Sequence record: OR594181 | DNA: 44,446 nucleotides | Reading direction: 5' to 3' (one strand) | Source: Escherichia phage vB_EcoM_SHAK7704 | Part shown: piece by piece, positions 1,898-39,625 of the stretch | Layout of the letters: the number at the start of each line of letters is the position of its first letter | How positions within the stretch are numbered: position 1 is the first letter of the stretch | Position numbers and translations under genes: made by a program | The notes under the pieces: generated by a model | Told to the model about the DNA's origin: nothing | The model's input: the letters and a program-made list of their open reading frames with translations, nothing else | Databases searched by the model: none

Positions 1898-1915
1898 ATT
1901 TACTGGACACTATAG
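1898..1915 (+). promoter_or_regulatory. Phage RNAP promoter ATTTACTGGACACTATAG
   Basis: 18-mer matching the consensus repeated across the window; immediately after the terminase stop. Confidence 0.7.
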
Positions 1916-1991
1916 GAGGAAGACCAAGAGAATAAAGGAATATTATAGGATAATATAGGATTACCTATGTTATATAGGTACACCTTATTAT

Positions 1992-2020
1992 GAGGGTACT
2001 CCTGTACCCTCTTCTTATCT
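1992..2020 (+). terminator. Promoter-proximal hairpin GAGGGTAC-tcct-GTACCCTC followed by T-rich run
   Basis: Perfect 8-bp stem, then ttcttatct; about 80 nt downstream of the promoter +1 and upstream of the 2054 ORF. Confidence 0.4.
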
Positions 2021-7397: not shown

Positions 7398-7531
7398 GGA
7401 GAACGCCTAGGAAGCGCTAGGGCACGCCTTAGTATTGGACAAGGTGATTGCCTTAGTGCAACCGCTTAGGGCTTACACAGGCCGTTTTAGGGCCATTCCT
7501 GAGCGTTTGACAAGGTGGGCGTGGGTGGGCT
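7398..7531 (+). repeat. Direct repeat copy 1 (134 bp), putative right terminal repeat
   Basis: Identical base-for-base to 7532-7665 in direct tandem. Confidence 0.7.
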
Positions 7532-7665
7532 GGAGAACGCCTAGGAAGCGCTAGGGCACGCCTTAGTATTGGACAAGGTGATTGCCTTAGTGCAACCGCT
7601 TAGGGCTTACACAGGCCGTTTTAGGGCCATTCCTGAGCGTTTGACAAGGTGGGCGTGGGTGGGCT
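7532..7665 (+). repeat. Direct repeat copy 2 (134 bp), putative left terminal repeat
   Basis: Identical to 7398-7531; followed at 7666 by ATCTGTT. Confidence 0.7.
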
Positions 7666-7716: not shown

Positions 7717-7845
7717 ACCTTAGGTTATTCCTTGATGGATGGCTTAGGTTAGCCTTAGTGGGCTGCCTTAGTTAAAGCCTTAGTGCTTAGCTTAGTATCA
7801 ACTTAGTAGTGTACCTTAGTAAGTCTTAGTGTCTTCTCTTAGTGA
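7717..7845 (+). repeat. Array of about 10 short CTTAGT-type repeats next to the terminal repeat
   Basis: ccttagg, gcttagg, ccttagt, gcttagt, acttagt, tcttagt recur every 8-15 bp. Confidence 0.6.
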
Positions 7846-8027
7846 TTGCATAGCTAAAGCTATAAGATGCAATTAGGTCGCGGTCGGTAGACCGCTAAGA
7901 GTAGGTAATAGTAATAAGATGCAGTAGGAGGAACACCAGAAACCTAGCCAACCTAGCCTATCCTAGCTCTGTATCTATTGCTTTCCTTAGTCTCACATGT
8001 TAGACAACCTATGTTTATCTTAGTAGT

Positions 8028-11650: not shown

Positions 11651-14278
11651 ATGCAAGACCTACACGCTATTCAACTTCAACTTGAAGAAGAAATGTTTAA
11701 CGGCGGTATCCGTCGCTTTGAAGCGGACCAACAACGCCAGATTGCATCCGGTAATGAATCAGACACGGCATGGAATCGCCGTTTATTGTCCGAGTTAATC
11801 GCGCCAATGGCTGAAGGTATTCAGGCATACAAGGAAGAGTATGAAGGTAAAAGAGGCCGTGCACCGCGTGCATTAGCTTTCATTAACTGCGTAGAAAACG
11901 AAGTGGCAGCATATATCACGATGAAAATCGTTATGGATATGCTGAATACAGACGTTACCTTACAAGCAATCGCTATGAATGTAGCGGACCGCATCGAAGA
12001 CCAAGTACGTTTTAGCAAGCTGGAAGGTCACGCAGCTAAGTACTTTGAGAAAGTGAAGAAGTCGCTTAAGGCTAGCAAGACTAAATCTTATCGTCATGCG
12101 CACAACGTAGCGGTAGTAGCTGAGAAATCTGTTGCTGACCGTGACGCGGATTTCTCCCGTTGGGAGGCATGGCCTAAAGATACCTTGCTACAAATCGGTA
12201 TAACCTTGCTAGAAATACTGGAAAATAGTGTATTCTTCAATGGTCAGCCTGTCTTTCTTCGCACCTTGCGCACTAATGGTGGCAAGCATGGCGTTTACTA
12301 CTTACAGACCAGTGAACACGTAGGGGAATGGATTACAGCATTTAAAGAACATGTAGCGCAACTTAGCCCGGCTTATGCACCTTGCGTTATACCTCCGCGT
12401 CCGTGGGTTTCTCCTTTTAATGGCGGTTTTCACACTGAGAAGGTAGCAAGTCGTGTGCGTCTTGTTAAAGGCAGCCGTGAACACGTCCGCAAGCTGACCA
12501 AAAAGCAAATGCCAGCGGTTTACAAGGCTGTTAACGCTTTGCAGGCGACTAAATGGCAGGTTAACAAGGAAGTTTTACAGGTTGTTGAGGACGTAATACG
12601 GCTTGATTTAGGCTATGGCGTACCTTCCTTCAAACCACTCATCGACCGCGAGAACAAGCCAGCTAATCCGGTGCCGTTAGAGTTCCAGCACCTGCGAGGC
12701 CGTGAACTGAAAGAAATGTTAACACCGGAACAATGGCAAGCCTTCATCAACTGGAAAGGTGAATGCACCAAGCTGTATACCGCTGAGACTAAGCGCGGCA
12801 GCAAATCGGCGGCGACCGTCCGCATGGTAGGGCAGGCCCGTAAATACAGCCGATTTGACGCAATATACTTCGTGTATGCTCTGGACAGCCGCAGCCGCGT
12901 CTACGCGCAATCTAGCACGCTCTCTCCACAATCAAACGACTTAGGCAAGGCATTGCTCCGTTTTACCGAAGGGCAGCGTCTTGATAGCGCTGAGGCGCTT
13001 AAGTGGTTTTTGGTGAACGGGGCTAATAACTGGGGTTGGGATAAGAAAACTTTTGACGTGCGCACCGCTAACGTGCTGGATAGTGAATTTCAAGACATGT
13101 GCCGCGACATTGCAGCGGATCCGCTGACCTTCACTCAATGGGTAAATGCCGACTCCCCTTACGGCTTCCTTGCATGGTGCTTTGAATATGCGCGTTATCT
13201 GGATGCACTGGATGAAGGCACGCAAGACCAATTCATGACGCACCTCCCAGTCCATCAAGATGGTAGTTGTTCTGGTATCCAGCACTACAGTGCTATGCTA
13301 CGCGATGCAGTAGGTGCGAAAGCGGTAAACCTTAAGCCCTCTGACTCACCTCAAGATATTTATGGTGCCGTTGCGCAGGTAGTAATTCAGAAGAATTATG
13401 CATACATGAATGCAGAGGATGCGGAAACCTTCACTTCTGGCAGCGTGACTTTAACAGGTGCAGAACTTCGTAGCATGGCTAGTGCGTGGGATATGATAGG
13501 AATCACTCGCGGCCTGACCAAAAAGCCTGTAATGACACTACCTTATGGCAGCACACGTCTAACCTGCCGTGAATCAGTGATTGATTATATCGTTGATTTG
13601 GAAGAAAAAGAGGCCCAACGGGCTATTGCGGAAGGGCGTACCGCCAATCCTGTACATCCTTTTGATAATGACCGCAAAGACAGCCTGACACCTAGCGCAG
13701 CTTATAACTATATGACAGCTTTAATCTGGCCTTCTATTTCGGAAGTGGTTAAAGCTCCTATAGTGGCAATGAAAATGATTCGTCAGCTTGCACGTTTCGC
13801 AGCTAAAAGAAACGAAGGCTTAGAATATCCCTTACCAACTGGCTTCATCTTGCAACAAAAGATAATGGCTACCGATATGCTCCGCGTATCCACTTGCTTG
13901 ATGGGTGAAATCAAGATGAGTCTCCAGATTGAAACAGATGTAGTTGATGAAACGGCAATGATGGGTGCGGCTGCCCCTAACTTCGTCCATGGTCACGATG
14001 CTAGCCACCTGATTCTGACTGTATGTGACCTAGTGGATAAAGGTATTACATCCATTGCAGTCATCCATGATTCTTTCGGTACTCATGCAGGACGTACCGC
14101 AGACCTGCGGGATAGCTTAAGGGAAGAAATGGTTAAGATGTATCAAAACCATAATGCCCTGCAAAACCTGCTAGATGTGCACGAAGAGCGTTGGTTAGTA
14201 GACACCGGAATCCAAGTACCAGAGCAAGGAGAGTTTGACCTTAACGAAATCTTAGTTTCAGACTATTGTTTCGCATAA
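11651..14278 (+). CDS. Single-subunit DNA-dependent RNA polymerase (T7 gene 1-like)
   Basis: 875 aa; C-terminus ...DYCFA like T7 RNAP ...FAFA; preceded by early genes. Confidence 0.95.
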
Positions 14279-14286
14279 TATTAATA

Positions 14287-14318
14287 GGCCATTCCTTAGG
14301 GAGTGGCCTTTTTCTTTA
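14287..14318 (+). terminator. Intrinsic terminator after the RNAP gene
   Basis: GGCCATTCC-ttag-GGAGTGGCC stem followed by TTTTTCTTT. Confidence 0.65.
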
Positions 14319-14351
14319 CCTACTACCTGTAACATTTCATTAACATAAAGT

Positions 14352-14367
14352 GTCTCACATGTGAGAC
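14352..14367 (+). repeat. 16-bp perfect palindrome GTCTCACATGTGAGAC (copy a)
   Basis: Directly upstream of the promoter at 14370. Confidence 0.8.
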
Positions 14368-14369
14368 TT

Positions 14370-14387
14370 ATTTACCGGACACTATAG
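14370..14387 (+). promoter_or_regulatory. Phage RNAP promoter ATTTACCGGACACTATAG
   Basis: Consensus with one substitution (C at position 7). Confidence 0.65.
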
Positions 14388-14543
14388 GATAGCCGTCGGA
14401 GACGGGAAAGAAAGGGAAGATAAAGGATATAAAGGAAGTAATAGGTATTAAAGGTTATATAGGTTATCTAGGAATACCTAGGAATACCTATTACCTTCTT
14501 CCTTCCTCTTATTACCACTTAGAGGAAGGGCAGACCTAGGTTG
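14388..14543 (+). other. Origin-like repeat region between two phage promoters
   Basis: AT-rich; AAAGGA iterons; tandem ctaggaataccta/ggaataccta; inverted repeat GGAAGTAATAGGTATT...AATACCTATTACCTTCC. Confidence 0.45.
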
Positions 14544-14559
14544 TCTCACATGTGAGACT
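14544..14559 (+). repeat. 16-bp palindrome GTCTCACATGTGAGAC (copy b)
   Basis: Directly upstream of the promoter at 14564. Confidence 0.8.
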
Positions 14560-14563
14560 TCGT

Positions 14564-14581
14564 ATTTACCGGACAGTATAG
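14564..14581 (+). promoter_or_regulatory. Phage RNAP promoter variant ATTTACCGGACAGTATAG
   Basis: Two substitutions from consensus; precedes the 14612 ORF. Confidence 0.5.
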
Positions 14582-14611
14582 ATAAGATTAACTCACTTTG
14601 GAGATTTAACC

Positions 14612-14740
14612 ATGCGTAACTTTGAGAAGATGGCCCGTAAAGCTAACCGTTTTGACATAGAAGAAGGGCAGAAGAAAGGCAAGAAGCTGAATAAACCTGT
14701 CCGTGATCGTGCATCTAAACGCGCTGCGTGGGAGTTCTAA
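14612..14740 (+). CDS. Small basic protein (42 aa), T7 gp1.1-like by position
   Basis: MRNFEKMARKANRF..., Lys/Arg-rich; first gene after RNAP; GGAG RBS; the gp1.1 likeness is from memory. Confidence 0.5.
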   Translation: MRNFEKMARKANRFDIEEGQKKGKKLNKPVRDRASKRAAWEF

Positions 14741-14743
14741 GTT

Positions 14744-14962
14744 ATGGCTAAATACAGAATCAAGACCTGTTTAAATAGTCACGGGCAAGAGTGCTACATA
14801 GTGCAACGTAAAGTATTAGGCTTAATATGGGTCACGTGTATGATGCCTATTGGCTATACTGATACAGAGGCTATCTTCTGCACCGAAAGGGATGCAAAGA
14901 AGTTTATCTCTGAGCGTAGAAAAGCTGACTCTTACCAACCCAGAACTATTAAGGTGAACTAA
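14744..14962 (+). CDS. Hypothetical protein
   Basis: 72 aa; stop overlaps the primase/helicase start. Confidence 0.5.
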   Translation: MAKYRIKTCLNSHGQECYIVQRKVLGLIWVTCMMPIGYTDTEAIFCTERDAKKFISERRKADSYQPRTIKVN

Positions 14963-16950
14963 TGGCTATTATTAATAACATCCCGTGCCCTGCCTGCCAG
15001 AAGAATGGACACGATAAATCCGGCAATCATCTCATGATATTTGATGATGGTGCTGGCTATTGTAACCGTGGTCATTTCCACGATAACGGCAAGCCTTACT
15101 ATCATAAGCCAGAAGGTGGCATCGAGATCACCGAGTTGCCTATTACTGGCAATATCAAATATACACCTTCTCAATTCAAAGAGATGGAGAAGGAAGGGAA
15201 GATAAGCGACCCTAAGTTACGCGCCATCGCACTTGGTGGTATGCGTATGAAAGACCGATGGGAGGTCATGAATGAGCAAGAAAGGGCAGACCAAGAAGCA
15301 GAGTGGAAACTTGATGTTGAATGGTTCCTCACGCTTAAGCGTAAGAATCTTGTTTCCCGACACATTCGCGGCGACATTTGCGCATTGTATGATGTACGTG
15401 TCGGACACGATGAAGATGGTAGAGTCTCACGGCATTACTATCCACGCTTCGAGAAAGGTGAGCTAGTAGGCGCTAAGTGTCGCACATTACCTAAAGACTT
15501 TAAGTTTGGTCATTTAGGTAAACTCTTTGGTATGCAAGATCTTTTCGGTATGAATACTTTGTCTCACGTGTTAGACAAGGGAAGACGAAAGGATTGCTTG
15601 CTTATTGTAGGTGGTGAACTTGATGCACTAGCAGCACAGCAAATGCTCCTTGATTCTGCCAAGGGTACTAAGTGGGAAGGCCAGCCTTACCATGTATGGT
15701 CTGTCAATAAAGGTGAGTCTTGCCTTGAAGAGATAGTACAGAACCGTGAACACATCGCCCAATTTAAGAAGATTATATGGGGTTTTGATGGCGACGAGGT
15801 GGGGCAGAAGCAGAATCAGCAAGCGGCTCGCCTGTTTCCTGGCAAATCCTATATCCTTGAATACCCTTCTGGTTGCAAAGATGCTAACAAGGCATTGATG
15901 GCTGGCAAGGCTAAAGAGTTTGTTGATGCTTGGTTTAATGCCAAGTCATCTGATGAAGTCTTTGGTAGCCAGATTAAATCTATCGCATCTCAAAGGGATA
16001 AGCTCAAGGCTGCACGTCCAGAGCAAGGACTATCATGGCCTTGGCCTAAGCTGAACAAGGTAACGCTAGGTATTCGTAAGAACCAGCTTATCATTGTAGG
16101 TGCAGGTTCTGGTGTAGGTAAGACTGAGTTCCTCCGCGAAGTGGTTAAACATCTCATTGAAGAACACGGTGAATCTGTAGGCATCATTTCTACAGAAGAC
16201 CCAATGGTCAAGGTGTCCCGTGCTTTTATCGGCAAGTGGATTGATAAGCGTATTGAGTTACCGCCAACCAACGACCCGAAAGAAGACGGATACCGTGAGG
16301 TGTTCGACTACACCGAGGAAGAAGCTAACGCTGCCATTGATTATGTAGCTGATACAGGAAAGCTATTTGTGGCTGACCTAGAAGGCGATTATTCTATGGA
16401 GAAGGTAGAGCAAACTTGCCTAGAGTTTGAGGCTATGGGCATTTCTAATATCATCATTGATAACTTAACGGGGATTAAATTAGATGAGCGTGCTTTTGGT
16501 GGGAAGGTTGGTGCACTTGATGAATGCGTCAAACGAATTGGTACTATCAAAGACCGACATGCGGTTACGATTTTCCTTGTCTCTCACCTTACACGTCCTC
16601 CGGCAAACCGTACCCAACACGAAGAAGGTGGCGAAGTTATCCTTTCTGACTTCCGAGGCTCAGGCGCTATCGGATTCTGGGCATCTTACGCCTTGGGGAT
16701 TGAGCGTAATACAAGAGCTGAAACGCTTGATGAAAGGACTACCACGTACATCTCGTGTGTCAAAGACCGCGATCAAGGTATCTACACTGGAACCAAGGTC
16801 ATGCTTAAAGGTGACATTCAGACCGGACGTTTGATGGAACCACAAGCCCGTACTAAGTCATTTGATACAGGTGAAGCAAGGCAGCAAGAGGTGCCTGATT
16901 TACCGGACACTATAGAAGAGACAAACTTTGAAGATGAACAGGAGTTTTAA
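14962..16950 (+). CDS. DNA primase/helicase (T7 gp4-like)
   Basis: 662 aa; N-terminal Cys4 zinc motif CPAC...C..GH; Walker A GAGSGVGKT; acidic C-terminus ending in Phe (EDEQEF). Confidence 0.9.
   Translation: MAIINNIPCPACQKNGHDKSGNHLMIFDDGAGYCNRGHFHDNGKPYYHKPEGGIEITELPITGNIKYTPSQFKEMEKEGKISDPKLRAIALGGMRMKDRWEVMNEQERADQEAEWKLDVEWFLTLKRKNLVSRHIRGDICALYDVRVGHDEDGRVSRHYYPRFEKGELVGAKCRTLPKDFKFGHLGKLFGMQDLFGMNTLSHVLDKGRRKDCLLIVGGELDALAAQQMLLDSAKGTKWEGQPYHVWSVNKGESCLEEIVQNREHIAQFKKIIWGFDGDEVGQKQNQQAARLFPGKSYILEYPSGCKDANKALMAGKAKEFVDAWFNAKSSDEVFGSQIKSIASQRDKLKAARPEQGLSWPWPKLNKVTLGIRKNQLIIVGAGSGVGKTEFLREVVKHLIEEHGESVGIISTEDPMVKVSRAFIGKWIDKRIELPPTNDPKEDGYREVFDYTEEEANAAIDYVADTGKLFVADLEGDYSMEKVEQTCLEFEAMGISNIIIDNLTGIKLDERAFGGKVGALDECVKRIGTIKDRHAVTIFLVSHLTRPPANRTQHEEGGEVILSDFRGSGAIGFWASYALGIERNTRAETLDERTTTYISCVKDRDQGIYTGTKVMLKGDIQTGRLMEPQARTKSFDTGEARQQEVPDLPDTIEETNFEDEQEF
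16898..16915 (+). promoter_or_regulatory. Phage RNAP promoter ATTTACCGGACACTATAG inside the primase/helicase 3' end
   Basis: 18-mer lies in coding sequence and encodes ...PDTIEE... Confidence 0.6.
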
Positions 16951-21318: not shown

Positions 21319-21336
21319 ATTTACTGGACACTATAG
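21319..21336 (+). promoter_or_regulatory. Phage RNAP promoter ATTTACTGGACACTATAG
   Basis: Exact consensus. Confidence 0.7.
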
Positions 21337-21406
21337 AAGGAAAGCCTAGGTAATCTAGGTTTATAAGGTAGTATAGGTAATTAAGTAAATATAGGAGATA
21401 TAAAAT

Positions 21407-21784
21407 ATGTCTATGGTAACTACTCTGGTATTCGTGGCTCAATACTTTCGTGGTCTTGCTAATAAGTTCAAGTCCAAGGCTATCAAAGCTATTGAGGCTC
21501 GCATCGAAGCAGTACAGGCAGAGCAAGTTAAAGTTGAAGAACATCGTAGTTCTCAAATGATTGACTGCCATAACCGCTACTATGCATCTCGTGATGAACT
21601 AAATGCACGTCAAGTCAAAGAGGTAGAAGATATGCTGGCACGTCACCAGCAAGAGCGTGACAGCCTGAAAGCTGAATTTGAAGAGAACAAGGCATCAATT
21701 GCTCTTGTAAATCAAGCTGCATCTGACAGCCTGAAGAAAGAGATTGTTATGCTGGAAATAGAACTGGACAACTTGACTAAATAA
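21407..21784 (+). CDS. Hypothetical coiled-coil protein
   Basis: 125 aa; AGGAG RBS; heptad-like charged sequence. Confidence 0.6.
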   Translation: MSMVTTLVFVAQYFRGLANKFKSKAIKAIEARIEAVQAEQVKVEEHRSSQMIDCHNRYYASRDELNARQVKEVEDMLARHQQERDSLKAEFEENKASIALVNQAASDSLKKEIVMLEIELDNLTK

Positions 21785-36677: not shown

Positions 36678-39625
36678 TGGCAATTGAGCGACAAGCAGTA
36701 CAAGGTCTGCCACAAGTGCAGGCCACTTCTCCTAATGTCATGACCTTTGCACCTCAACAAGTGGGAGGTGTGGAGGCTGGCGTGGCTTCTACCTCCGGTA
36801 GTAGATTTATCGAAGACCTTATTCGTGCAGCAAGCAGCGTGGCTGATGTTACCACTGGTATCCTTAATCAGAAGATTGAGGAAGATAAGGTTGTTCAGAT
36901 GGAACGGGCATATAACGGATTAATGCCTTCTGAGGATGCAACTCGTGGTGGCGCTCGTGCTAACATGCTTGTCAAAGCTCAACTGCTAGCTAATGATGAA
37001 GCAGCACGAATGAAAGACATGGCTACTCGTTTCCAAGGGACGGATGACGAGTGGACACAACTTATGGTTGACTCTCGTAATGAGATGCAGAATAAGCTGT
37101 TCCAGCAATACCCTGAGTTGCAAGGTGACAAAGATACTATGCGTATGGTCACTAATGTCTTCCAAGAACAGCAGCCTCAGATTTGGGCTACACGGACCCA
37201 GCATAAACTTGACCGTGAACAAGCAGACCGTGAGGATACCTTTGACGGGCGAGTGGCTTCTACTTGGGATTCTAATATTGACCCTGAAGCTTCTGGCTAT
37301 GCTTTACAGGAACGAATCCGCGAAGGTCTTACTCAAGGATTACTACCTGAACAGATGCACAAGAAGTTAGTCCAGCGAGCAATTTCACTTGCACAAGGCG
37401 GTGATGTTAGCATGGCTGAAGCCCTGAAGTATGTGAAGGACGATAATGGTGTTTCTGTTTATGCTAAGAATCCACAGCTTATCACAGCCATCACTAGTGG
37501 TAATGCAGTTTGGGCTAGGAATAATGTAGCTGATGTAACTCGTATGTCTTTCGAAGTTAAAGAATCATACCTTGCAGGTGATTTAACTGATGAAGAATTG
37601 TTGGAACGAGCACAGCACATTAATAATCTGACAGGTAACTATGTCTTCTCTAATCCAGAACTAGAGGCACTGATGCGCCAAAGGGCTAAGCAGAATGCAG
37701 AGCTAGGTGCAATGCAGGATATGCGACGTGAGCTTTACTCCGACCGCCTGACTGGCTTCCAAGGTAAGACTGATAAAGAGAAGAAGGCTTACATTGATGT
37801 TATCAAACAGGATAGCCAACTTTATGCAGACCAGCAAATCAAACAACGTGGCTTGGATCCTTACAGTCAAGAGGCTGAAGCTATTCGTGGTGCAGTGGAA
37901 GTGCAGCGTCTGCAATTCATGAACTCCAAAGGCTTAGTGGATGACACCTTTGAGTCTCGTATCAAAGCCATGGAATCTATGCTATCGCCTGAGCACTTTG
38001 CCAAGGGCGAACCACAGGAGTTGATGACTATTCGCCAGTTGTGGGAACAGTTGCCAGAAGAGAGCCGAGGTGTCTTTGGTGACACGGTTAATGGCTACAT
38101 GGATAACTACAACACTGCACTACAAATGGGAGAGACACCTTTGCAGGCTGCAAGGTTTGCGCGTGAAGCACAGCAGAAATTCTCTCGTACTGAGAAGGAA
38201 ACCAAGAAGTTCAACTCAGCTATTGGAGATGCGCTGGATGAGGTATCTGGTGCTGGCTGGTTTGATGGTAAAACCGAAGTGTCAGACTTAGGTAAAGCTA
38301 TTGCGGAAGAAGAGTTACGAGCTAAGGCCAATATGTTGTGGTCTAGCGGTATGCGTAACATGGATTCTATCAAGAAGGCTTTAATTACTTGGGGCAATAA
38401 ACGCTACACTCAATCAGAGGATGCAAAGACTTCCGGTGGCTATTTCATTAAAGGTGATTACACTTCTGCATCTGATATGCTTATGTCAGTTGGGAAAGGC
38501 GTAAACCCTACCGATGTACCTCTGGCGCTTGGTAGGTATGTAGAAACACAGATGCCAGAATTGAAGAAGGAGCTTCAAGAGTGGGAAACTAAAGATGATA
38601 TATACATTGATTACAATGAACAGAAAGGAACTTTTGTGATTCGTGCTGGTGCAGCAGGTCGCCCTCTTTCTGGAGTAATCCCTGTAACCTCTTTAGATAC
38701 TACTTCACTACTAGATTCTGCCTATCAGAAGAAAGTAGAGGAACGAGATAAAGGCGAGTATGTTCACCCGTATCGTACAGATATTGGTGCACAAGAGCCT
38801 ATGCCAGCTAAACCAACTGCCAAAGATATTGGTAAATTTGGACTAGCTAACTTCCTCATGTCTTCTGCTTTTGCTTCTGGTGAGAATCTACCTTCTAACT
38901 TCGAGATTAACTATCGAGGTAATATGCAACAATTCTATGACAAGCTAGCTATGGATGAGAATAAAGATAAAGTTGGCTTTAATAAGGCAACTGGAACCTT
39001 TACTCCATATAAAGACGCTCACGGTGAGTCTATCGGTTACGGTCATTTCTTAACGGAAGAAGAGAAGCGAAACGGGTATATTAAGATTGGCGATGAACTA
39101 GTTCCCTATCGAGGGTCTATGTCTCAGCTTACAGAGAGTAAGGCTCGCGCTCTTATGGAGCAAGATGCTAAGAAGCATGTGCCTCCTACTCGTGACTGGA
39201 AGATTCCGTTTGACCAGATGCATCCTGCACAGCAACGTGGCTTGATGGATTTAACCTACAATTTAGGTAAAGGTGGAATCCAGAACTCACCGCGTGCTCT
39301 TGCTGCATTCAAAGCTGGTAAGCTTACGGAAGGCTTTATCGAAATGCTGGGCACTGCATCAAGTGAAGGTAAGCGTATTCCTGGCCTACTGAAGCGACGC
39401 GCTGAGGCATACAATATGGCATCTGCTGGTGGTGTGCCTAAGATTACCGAAGTGGAGACTCGTGAAGATAGCTCCATGTGGGTTAGGTTTGGTGGACCTA
39501 TGCCAGCAGGTTCTGTCTCGGCATGGACTCATAAACGTATTGGCGCGGATGGTTGGTATCAGGTTTATGAGGCTGCACCTACCAAGTTAGCTAAAGGTTC
39601 TAAGGTAGGTAAAGTTAAGTTGTAG
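36677..39625 (+). CDS. Internal virion protein with C-terminal lysozyme-like domain
   Basis: 982 aa; C-terminal region has GESIGYGH in a T4-lysozyme-like context. Confidence 0.7.
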   Translation: MAIERQAVQGLPQVQATSPNVMTFAPQQVGGVEAGVASTSGSRFIEDLIRAASSVADVTTGILNQKIEEDKVVQMERAYNGLMPSEDATRGGARANMLVKAQLLANDEAARMKDMATRFQGTDDEWTQLMVDSRNEMQNKLFQQYPELQGDKDTMRMVTNVFQEQQPQIWATRTQHKLDREQADREDTFDGRVASTWDSNIDPEASGYALQERIREGLTQGLLPEQMHKKLVQRAISLAQGGDVSMAEALKYVKDDNGVSVYAKNPQLITAITSGNAVWARNNVADVTRMSFEVKESYLAGDLTDEELLERAQHINNLTGNYVFSNPELEALMRQRAKQNAELGAMQDMRRELYSDRLTGFQGKTDKEKKAYIDVIKQDSQLYADQQIKQRGLDPYSQEAEAIRGAVEVQRLQFMNSKGLVDDTFESRIKAMESMLSPEHFAKGEPQELMTIRQLWEQLPEESRGVFGDTVNGYMDNYNTALQMGETPLQAARFAREAQQKFSRTEKETKKFNSAIGDALDEVSGAGWFDGKTEVSDLGKAIAEEELRAKANMLWSSGMRNMDSIKKALITWGNKRYTQSEDAKTSGGYFIKGDYTSASDMLMSVGKGVNPTDVPLALGRYVETQMPELKKELQEWETKDDIYIDYNEQKGTFVIRAGAAGRPLSGVIPVTSLDTTSLLDSAYQKKVEERDKGEYVHPYRTDIGAQEPMPAKPTAKDIGKFGLANFLMSSAFASGENLPSNFEINYRGNMQQFYDKLAMDENKDKVGFNKATGTFTPYKDAHGESIGYGHFLTEEEKRNGYIKIGDELVPYRGSMSQLTESKARALMEQDAKKHVPPTRDWKIPFDQMHPAQQRGLMDLTYNLGKGGIQNSPRALAAFKAGKLTEGFIEMLGTASSEGKRIPGLLKRRAEAYNMASAGGVPKITEVETREDSSMWVRFGGPMPAGSVSAWTHKRIGADGWYQVYEAAPTKLAKGSKVGKVKL

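Follow-up and report, generated by a model that had tools for sequence, protein, structure and literature searches.

Does the gap that follows the RNA polymerase gene of Escherichia phage vB_EcoM_SHAK7704 hold a replication origin of the T7 type, as the original prediction proposed for positions 14287-14611, or do the many sequence elements crowded into it serve some other function? Phages of the SP6 and K1E type serve in phage therapy and as sources of RNA polymerases, and a defined origin in this group would be an aid to genome engineering and to building orthogonal replicons like the T7 ori plasmids. To our knowledge, T7 is the only family member whose origins have been mapped experimentally; for the SP6 group, the accessible literature yielded no replication mapping and no statement about an origin, and the analogy with T7 may have been noted earlier. 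A T7 specialist would, moreover, expect an origin in just this place. The primary origin of T7 comprises phi1.1A/phi1.1B, with phiOR and phi6.5 as secondary origins, and its one indispensable element is a phage promoter (PMC8373140); the R1.1 RNase III hairpin sits between phi1.1A and phi1.1B (PMC6121014). Our own answer is tentative: by analogy, we take the gap of SHAK7704 to be a well-grounded candidate for a T7-type, promoter-dependent replication origin that would double as the mRNA leader of the replication genes, a reading that we favour while judging it slightly more apt to fail than to stand.

The window analysed is the whole sequence record OR594181 (44,446 nt), to which all SHAK7704 coordinates refer. 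This genome belongs to the genus Vectrevirus (K1E/K1-5-like coliphages of the SP6 supergroup), and 501 bases round the locus find matches in 76 phage records (90-99.6% identity), almost all of them Escherichia Vectrevirus of the K1E/K1-5 type, the whole gap region being carried by 75 of the 76. The RNA polymerase gene on its left is likewise annotated in K1E, K1-5 and SP6. On its right, the open reading frame of gene 8 (14612-14740) has 54% identity to T7 gp1.1 by BLASTP and matches Pfam family Phage_1_1 (PF08200, 3.1e-14), and is followed by a primase-helicase gene (14962-16950) and then by a family-A DNA polymerase gene. By its Pfam matches, namely RNA_pol, DnaB_C with Toprim_2 (just below the Pfam cut-off, 21.4 against 22.1 bits) and DNA_pol_A, the phage encodes the T7-type set of RNA polymerase, primase-helicase and family-A DNA polymerase. 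Neither open reading frames of at least 30 aa nor sigma-70-like promoters are present in the gap, and a search of the whole 44,446-nt record with Rfam 15 returned no matches at the gathering score, with only sub-threshold chance hits in 13800-15200. The features of the locus and its two flanks, from left to right, are:

11651-14278, plus strand: single-subunit phage RNA polymerase gene, the left flank (Pfam RNA_pol, 3.9e-89; RPOL_N, 4.2e-31)
14286-14319, plus strand: intrinsic terminator of the early, host-polymerase type, with a 10-bp stem, a 4-nt loop and a T-run
14325-14345, plus strand: conserved 21-nt spacer ACCTGTAACATTTCATTAACA, between the terminator and the first palindrome
14352-14367, no strand assigned: palindrome copy 1, the perfect 16-mer GTCTCACATGTGAGAC, ending 2 nt before P1
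14370-14387, plus strand: phage promoter P1, an exact match to the genome's 18-mer ATTTACCGGACACTATAG, with +1 at the G at 14387
14393-14405, plus strand: 5' stem-loop of the P1 transcript, CCGTC GGA GACGG, with covariation
14413-14482, plus strand: purine-rich, AT-rich periodic AGG array, 8 units at a spacing of 9-11 nt
14471-14490, plus strand: 10-bp tandem duplication, ggaataccta twice, which adds one in-phase unit to the array
14484-14516, plus strand: pyrimidine tract complementary to part of the array, the 3' arm of the long inverted repeat
14501-14529, plus strand: second hairpin, CCTTCCTCT ... AGAGGAAGG, formed by a 9-bp repeat (14501-14509/14521-14529)
14543-14558, no strand assigned: palindrome copy 2, GTCTCACATGTGAGAC, ending 5 nt before P2
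14564-14581, plus strand: phage promoter P2, non-consensus, with one mismatch (C-5 to G) and +1 at the G at 14581
14600-14740, plus strand: ribosome binding site GGAG and gene 8, the 42-aa homologue of T7 gene 1.1 (BLASTP, Pfam)

Every element that the original prediction had listed, from the terminator, the two palindromes and the two promoters to the AT-rich block, the tandem ggaataccta and the long inverted repeat, is present where it had been placed. What it had called AAAGGA iterons is better described as an AGG recurring every 9-11 nt in eight units.

Whether the gap occupies the place of the T7 primary origin depends on where the genome begins, and this can be read from one further feature:

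7398-7665, plus strand: terminal repeat, two perfect tandem copies of 134 bp, with their junction at 7531/7532

The end sequences of SP6 map to both sides of this junction. Since these tandem copies constitute the terminal repeat, the left end of the physical genome is at 7532, and their presence inside the 44,446-nt record makes the latter a permuted or concatemer-junction assembly. From that end, the start of P1 is 6,856 nt away, or 15.4% of 44,446 bp, and phi1.1A/phi1.1B lie at 14.6-14.8% of the T7 genome, between gene 1 and gene 1.1. Flanked, in addition, by the polymerase gene on one side and the gene 1.1 homologue on the other, the gap is therefore the positional counterpart of the T7 primary-origin region. 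Beyond the terminal repeats, a run of CTTAG(T) repeats in 7720-7850 recalls the repeat arrays near the T7 genome ends.

The terminator stem (14286-14309) has 10 pairs, 6 of them G-C, and leads into the T-run TTTTTCTTT; a terminator is annotated at the equivalent site in the close relative MK373773, and a hairpin followed by a T-run is present in all relatives compared, with stems that differ. The spacer ACCTGTAACATTTCATTAACA is nearly identical between Vectrevirus-like (K1E) and Zindervirus-like (SP6) loci and absent from the more distant L021-L027. As for the promoters, the 18-mer has 12 matches in 44,446 nt at three or fewer mismatches, against 0.04 expected, and the P1 counterpart in each relative is that phage's own promoter sequence. 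P2, which starts 194 bp after P1 and ends some 30 nt before gene 8, departs from the P1 sequence in most lineages and does so in different ways (Vectrevirus and L021 have G for C at -5, the SP6 group T for A at -1, L022 G for A at -1), a pattern which suggests that it is a deliberately weaker or differently regulated promoter.

Between the two promoters lies DNA that melts easily. Duplex stability was scanned by the nearest-neighbour method in windows of 60-100 bp, a procedure validated beforehand on T7, where it returns as the four least stable windows the stretches that directly follow phiOL, phi1.1B, phi6.5 and phiOR. In SHAK7704, the three least stable windows begin at 21351, 1932 and 14417, and a phage promoter lies just upstream of each (transcription starts 21336, 1915 and 14387, respectively); the SP6 counterparts of these three stretches also rank high in the scan. 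The block from 14417 comes third with both 60- and 100-bp windows, and its 60-bp window has 25% GC against 45% genome-wide (0.05 percentile). The other two stretches belong to modules built along the same lines:

1898-2015, plus strand: second module, with a promoter, an AGG array and a terminator-like hairpin, after the terminase gene, at the position of T7 phiOR
21319-21407, plus strand: third module, with a promoter and a 5-unit AGG array that runs into the Shine-Dalgarno sequence of the next gene

A periodic, sense-strand AGG array is common to all three modules. The SP6 counterpart of the second (37773-37851) has an array of 7 units, and the leader of the third (21336-21407) is 92% identical to SP6 12559-12629, other leaders reaching 67-74%. 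The AT-rich region of the T7 primary origin likewise holds the densest short reiterated motif of that genome, of the TTAAG type, with 7 copies in 90 bp. What sets the gap apart from the modules at 1898 and 21319 is only its position and its pair of promoters, the tandem arrangement occurring in none but the gap module; since the two others score equal or better (starts 1915 and 21336), the word primary is owed solely to position. Two further signals were considered and set aside. GC skew is uniformly positive, with no inflection in SHAK7704, SP6 or T7, and has no power here, given that even the known origin of T7 leaves no inflection. R-loop propensity, calculated as predicted RNA:DNA hybrid versus DNA duplex stability, places the P1 block third in the genome, and was not used as support because the known T7 origins rank low on it, outside the top eight of T7.

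The same gap was collected from 40-odd relatives in IMG/VR and metagenomes. One order of elements, with terminator, palindrome, P1, 5' stem-loop, AGG array, pyrimidine complement, CCTAGG, palindrome (in part of the lineages), P2 and gene 1.1 homologue following one another, is kept from Vectrevirus through SP6/Zindervirus to lineages in which the C-terminus of the polymerase is 72-77% identical. Era103-like phages, at 62% polymerase identity, retain palindromes, promoter, an AGGT array and a terminal hairpin, and at 44-47% polymerase identity the gap architecture was no longer found. Conservation extends to the letters themselves, the gap being 93.8% identical within Vectrevirus against 73.6% at third codon positions of the adjacent polymerase gene, and 81.2% against 69.9% within the SP6 group. 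The 9-10-bp periodicity of AGG is found in every genus while the spacers vary, and 27 nt of the pyrimidine tract are invariant among 14 Vectrevirus sequences. This constraint on the block exceeds what a melting region needs and so points to an additional or alternative role, in RNA or protein binding.

Individual relatives vary on this plan. The number of array units ranges across lineages from a few to about a dozen, the latter in the metagenome relative L089, where neither P2 nor a gene 1.1 start can be recognised within 260 nt; another metagenome relative, L095, carries a third promoter, of consensus sequence, inside the block. L016, L091 and L106 (PhiNW-E1) have an extra open reading frame (ATGCGTAAATCATTAGCTCAA...) between P2 and the gene 1.1 homologue, which we suspect to encode a putative homing endonuclease, and in L105 (ULINTec4) a poly-T stretch of some 200 nt at the terminator has the look of an assembly artefact. 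For ULINTec4 and PhiNW-E1, a rearranged block was accordingly discarded, their larger inserts being this poly-T artefact and the extra reading frame after P2.

Two of the elements first listed for the locus prove to be no origin features. The ggaataccta duplication, real as it is, is limited to SHAK7704, L084 and PhiNW-E1 and missing from the other 12 Vectrevirus loci aligned, and thus belongs to a few close relatives. The palindromes, although present as predicted, are not specific to the locus: the genome holds 8 copies (7990, 14352, 14543, 15561, 17129, 18303, 23203 and 39643) against 0.22 expected, and these are syntenic with copies in SP6 (L034; 493, 6093, 6264, 7071, 8547, 9383, 14255, 17752 and 30569), whose consensus is GTCYAACRYGTTGGAC. 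The counterpart of copy 2 is missing in the distant relatives L021, L022 and L024-27. The stem sequence goes by group, with GTCTCAC... in K1E and Era103 types and GTCYAAC... in SP6 types, and the centre is variable in both sequence and length (17 nt in L021). Three intergenic copies have flanks that add 6-7 bp to the stem, with a U-rich tail behind them; these stem-extending flanks differ between SP6 and SHAK7704 yet stay complementary. In 6 of the 9 SP6 copies, moreover, a T4/G13 asymmetry makes a U.G pair on the sense strand only. Judged from these patterns, the palindromes are probably sequence-specific hairpins, serving as transcript punctuation or as the binding site of a factor. A copy inside the primase-helicase gene (15561-15576), conserved in SP6 (7071), is a hybrid of GTCTCAC and GTTAGAC; a perfect copy of the K1E type would create an in-frame TGA there, so that the site appears to be under coding and palindrome constraint together. 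As host operators for CRP, LacI or MetJ the palindromes were rejected, since the half-site arrangements that we take to be those of these sites do not fit.

The third pair of the 5' stem-loop of the P1 transcript is G:C in 22, A:T in 5, T:A in 5 and C:G in 1 of 33 distinct sequences, with no mismatch in any of them, which is genuine covariation; it follows that selection acts on the 5' end of the transcript made from P1. Further on, the long inverted repeat pairs 14432-14449 with 14483-14500 (18 nt, 89% complementary), and for the P1-to-P2 transcript the predicted fold, at z = -2.5 to -3.0, has a stem of 17 bp with further helices inside. In T7, the phi1.1A-to-phi1.1B segment, which contains the R1.1 hairpin, folds with z = -2.9. 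As the main rival to the origin reading, the gap could be purely an RNA-level leader, a structured 5' UTR of the P1 mRNA with the long hairpin as an R1.1-like RNase III element and with no role in starting replication, which we consider possible, if on the unlikely side. All ten of the diverged lineages folded are predicted to form a long hairpin despite their differing sequences (12-25 bp, z between -1.8 and -5.0), folding as RNA is slightly better for the plus than for the minus strand in 18 of 24 sequences, albeit by small differences, and the arrays are confined to the sense strand and resemble Shine-Dalgarno sequences, all of which such a leader would account for. Compensatory changes in the long hairpin were, however, not found: within the genus, where little variation is available, 13 of its 17 pairs are invariant and no pair has both partners changed, and over the Zindervirus sequences the covariation term comes out unfavourable, at +2.29, with a repeat alignment that is unreliable between genera. 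As DNA, both strands of the block fold equally well, Rfam has no match, and with the early transcript already ending at the upstream terminator the job that R1.1 does in T7 would be partly unnecessary in SHAK7704. An RNA leader is, in any case, compatible with an origin, as T7 has both functions in one gap.

The composition of the array bears on the remaining alternatives. Counted as a strict chain at 9-10 nt, the gap array has 7 AGG units, and strict chains of at least 4 units arise at 0.03 per shuffled genome. The purine content of P1 +1 to +80, at 0.75, is the highest in the genome; the units resemble the phage's own TAGGAG-type ribosome binding sites, and all AGG arrays lie on the transcribed sense strand. 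ATG, GTG and TTG occur 6 times in the block where 67 would be expected (11 lineages), a depletion that may be a by-product of motif composition, perhaps because the array never puts a T ahead of a G. These properties have led us to an idea of our own, which we regard as unlikely: the 9-10-nt, start-codon-free, strand-specific and Shine-Dalgarno-like AGG array, with its anti-Shine-Dalgarno-like pyrimidine tract, behind three promoters per genome might be, in place of a passive melting zone, an undescribed element of the SP6 group, acting either as RNA, in the form of a platform or sponge for ribosomes or an RNA-binding protein, or as a sequence-specific loading site for the replisome on the displaced strand, together with GTCTCACATGTGAGAC hairpins read by some factor.

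Another reading, in which promoter, AGG array and terminal hairpin would yield short abundant RNAs from three loci, a non-coding RNA family whose UAGGU/AAGGA motifs bind or titrate 30S subunits, CsrA or another RNA-binding protein, strikes us as improbable. It would fit the shared grammar of the three modules, the terminator-like hairpins that follow the arrays at 1898, in Era103-like loci and at palindrome 2, the use of TAGGAG-type sequences as ribosome binding sites by the phage, the scarcity of start triplets and the strong sequence constraint. The hairpin at 14543 is weak, however (6 bp, with no clean U-run), so that P1 transcripts probably continue past it for the most part; the scarcity of start codons may, as noted, just follow from the motif, and the array at 21319 is just the leader of a gene. 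CsrA in particular is a weakened candidate for the protein to be sponged, as its GGA core is not conserved, the SP6 units being mostly AGGU and the 5' loop being GAA in L022 and L027.

Least probable of these, in our judgement, is a DNA-level array of protein-binding sites, in which AGG units about one helical turn apart, with inverted copies, would serve as iteron-like sites for a phage or host DNA-binding protein, in an initiator-dependent origin or a region of transcription control, and the palindromes as operators: the steady periodicity, the invariant pyrimidine tract and a palindrome that is the same at 8 sites and differs between K1E and SP6 types, which suggests a factor that reads sequence, would suit it, but the core is 3-5 nt per unit, far below known iterons, duplex binding would not lead one to expect strict strand specificity, neither annotation nor search revealed an initiator-type gene nearby, and the variable centres, compensatory flanks and U.G asymmetry of the palindromes speak for hairpins and not duplex operators.

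We return, then, to the gap as a candidate promoter-dependent origin, for which a course of events, all of whose replication steps we infer, can be outlined. Transcription of the early genes by the host polymerase would stop at the terminator (14286-14319), and P1, the first consensus phage promoter, would fire rightward into the genes for the gene 1.1 homologue, the primase-helicase and the DNA polymerase. Its transcript would begin with the conserved 5' stem-loop and continue with the easily melted, purine-rich AGG array and its pyrimidine complement. Transcription from P1 would open the block and nascent RNA ends would be taken over by the phage DNA polymerase, with the displaced strand, foldable into the long hairpin, as a possible loading place for the primase-helicase. 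P2 would act as a second, weaker promoter, like phi1.1B beside phi1.1A; the DNA of the gap would double as mRNA leader, with the modules at 1898 and 21319 as secondary origins comparable to phiOR and phi6.5 of T7. The primase of SP6 is said, in work by Tseng, Frick and Richardson from 2000, to prefer 5'-GCA-3'. A top-strand GCA lies in GGGCAGAC (14530-14532), invariant in Vectrevirus and absent in several Zindervirus-like loci; being a trinucleotide, it carries no statistical weight. The comparison with T7 shows that the grammar of its origins, a promoter together with the least stable DNA, carries over to the SP6 group, and that this group has added to it a strongly constrained periodic motif, which offers a concrete target for mutation.

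Set beside known systems, the locus recalls the iteron origins of lambda (ori) and theta plasmids in having phased direct repeats next to an AT-rich zone, and differs from them in its 9-10-bp, strand-specific units with a core of 3-5 nt. Sites of about 17-22 bp with extended conservation, as in iterons, were not found, only AGG and one or two flanking bases being conserved, and an initiator gene is not evident among the neighbouring genes or in the SP6 annotation, many small early genes being without known function. With T7 R1.1, it shares a predicted hairpin segment of similar z-score between two promoters after the polymerase gene; the segment is about 100 nt long and AT-rich in SHAK7704 against 60 nt in T7, with no sequence similarity and no covariation support. 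The T7 secondary origins phiOR, phi6.5 and phiOL resemble the modules in that a phage promoter is followed by very AT-rich DNA, and phiOR also in that the 1898 module follows the terminase gene; unlike these T7 origins, the SHAK7704 modules share a specific periodic motif. The comparison with the T7 primary origin, on which the original prediction was built, does not extend to the layout, for the AT-rich region comes after both promoters in T7 and between them in SHAK7704; the promoters are, in addition, 75 bp apart in T7 as against 194 bp, TTAAG-rich DNA in T7 stands against a periodic AGG array with a complementary arm, and the host terminator and two palindromes of SHAK7704 have no equivalent in T7. 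It holds in position, promoters, melting propensity and enzymes: some 15% of the way along both genomes, where the RNA polymerase gene gives way to gene 1.1 or its homologue, stand two rightward phage promoters and one of the least stable duplex stretches, with a short reiterated motif, and the replication enzymes of the two phages are homologous.
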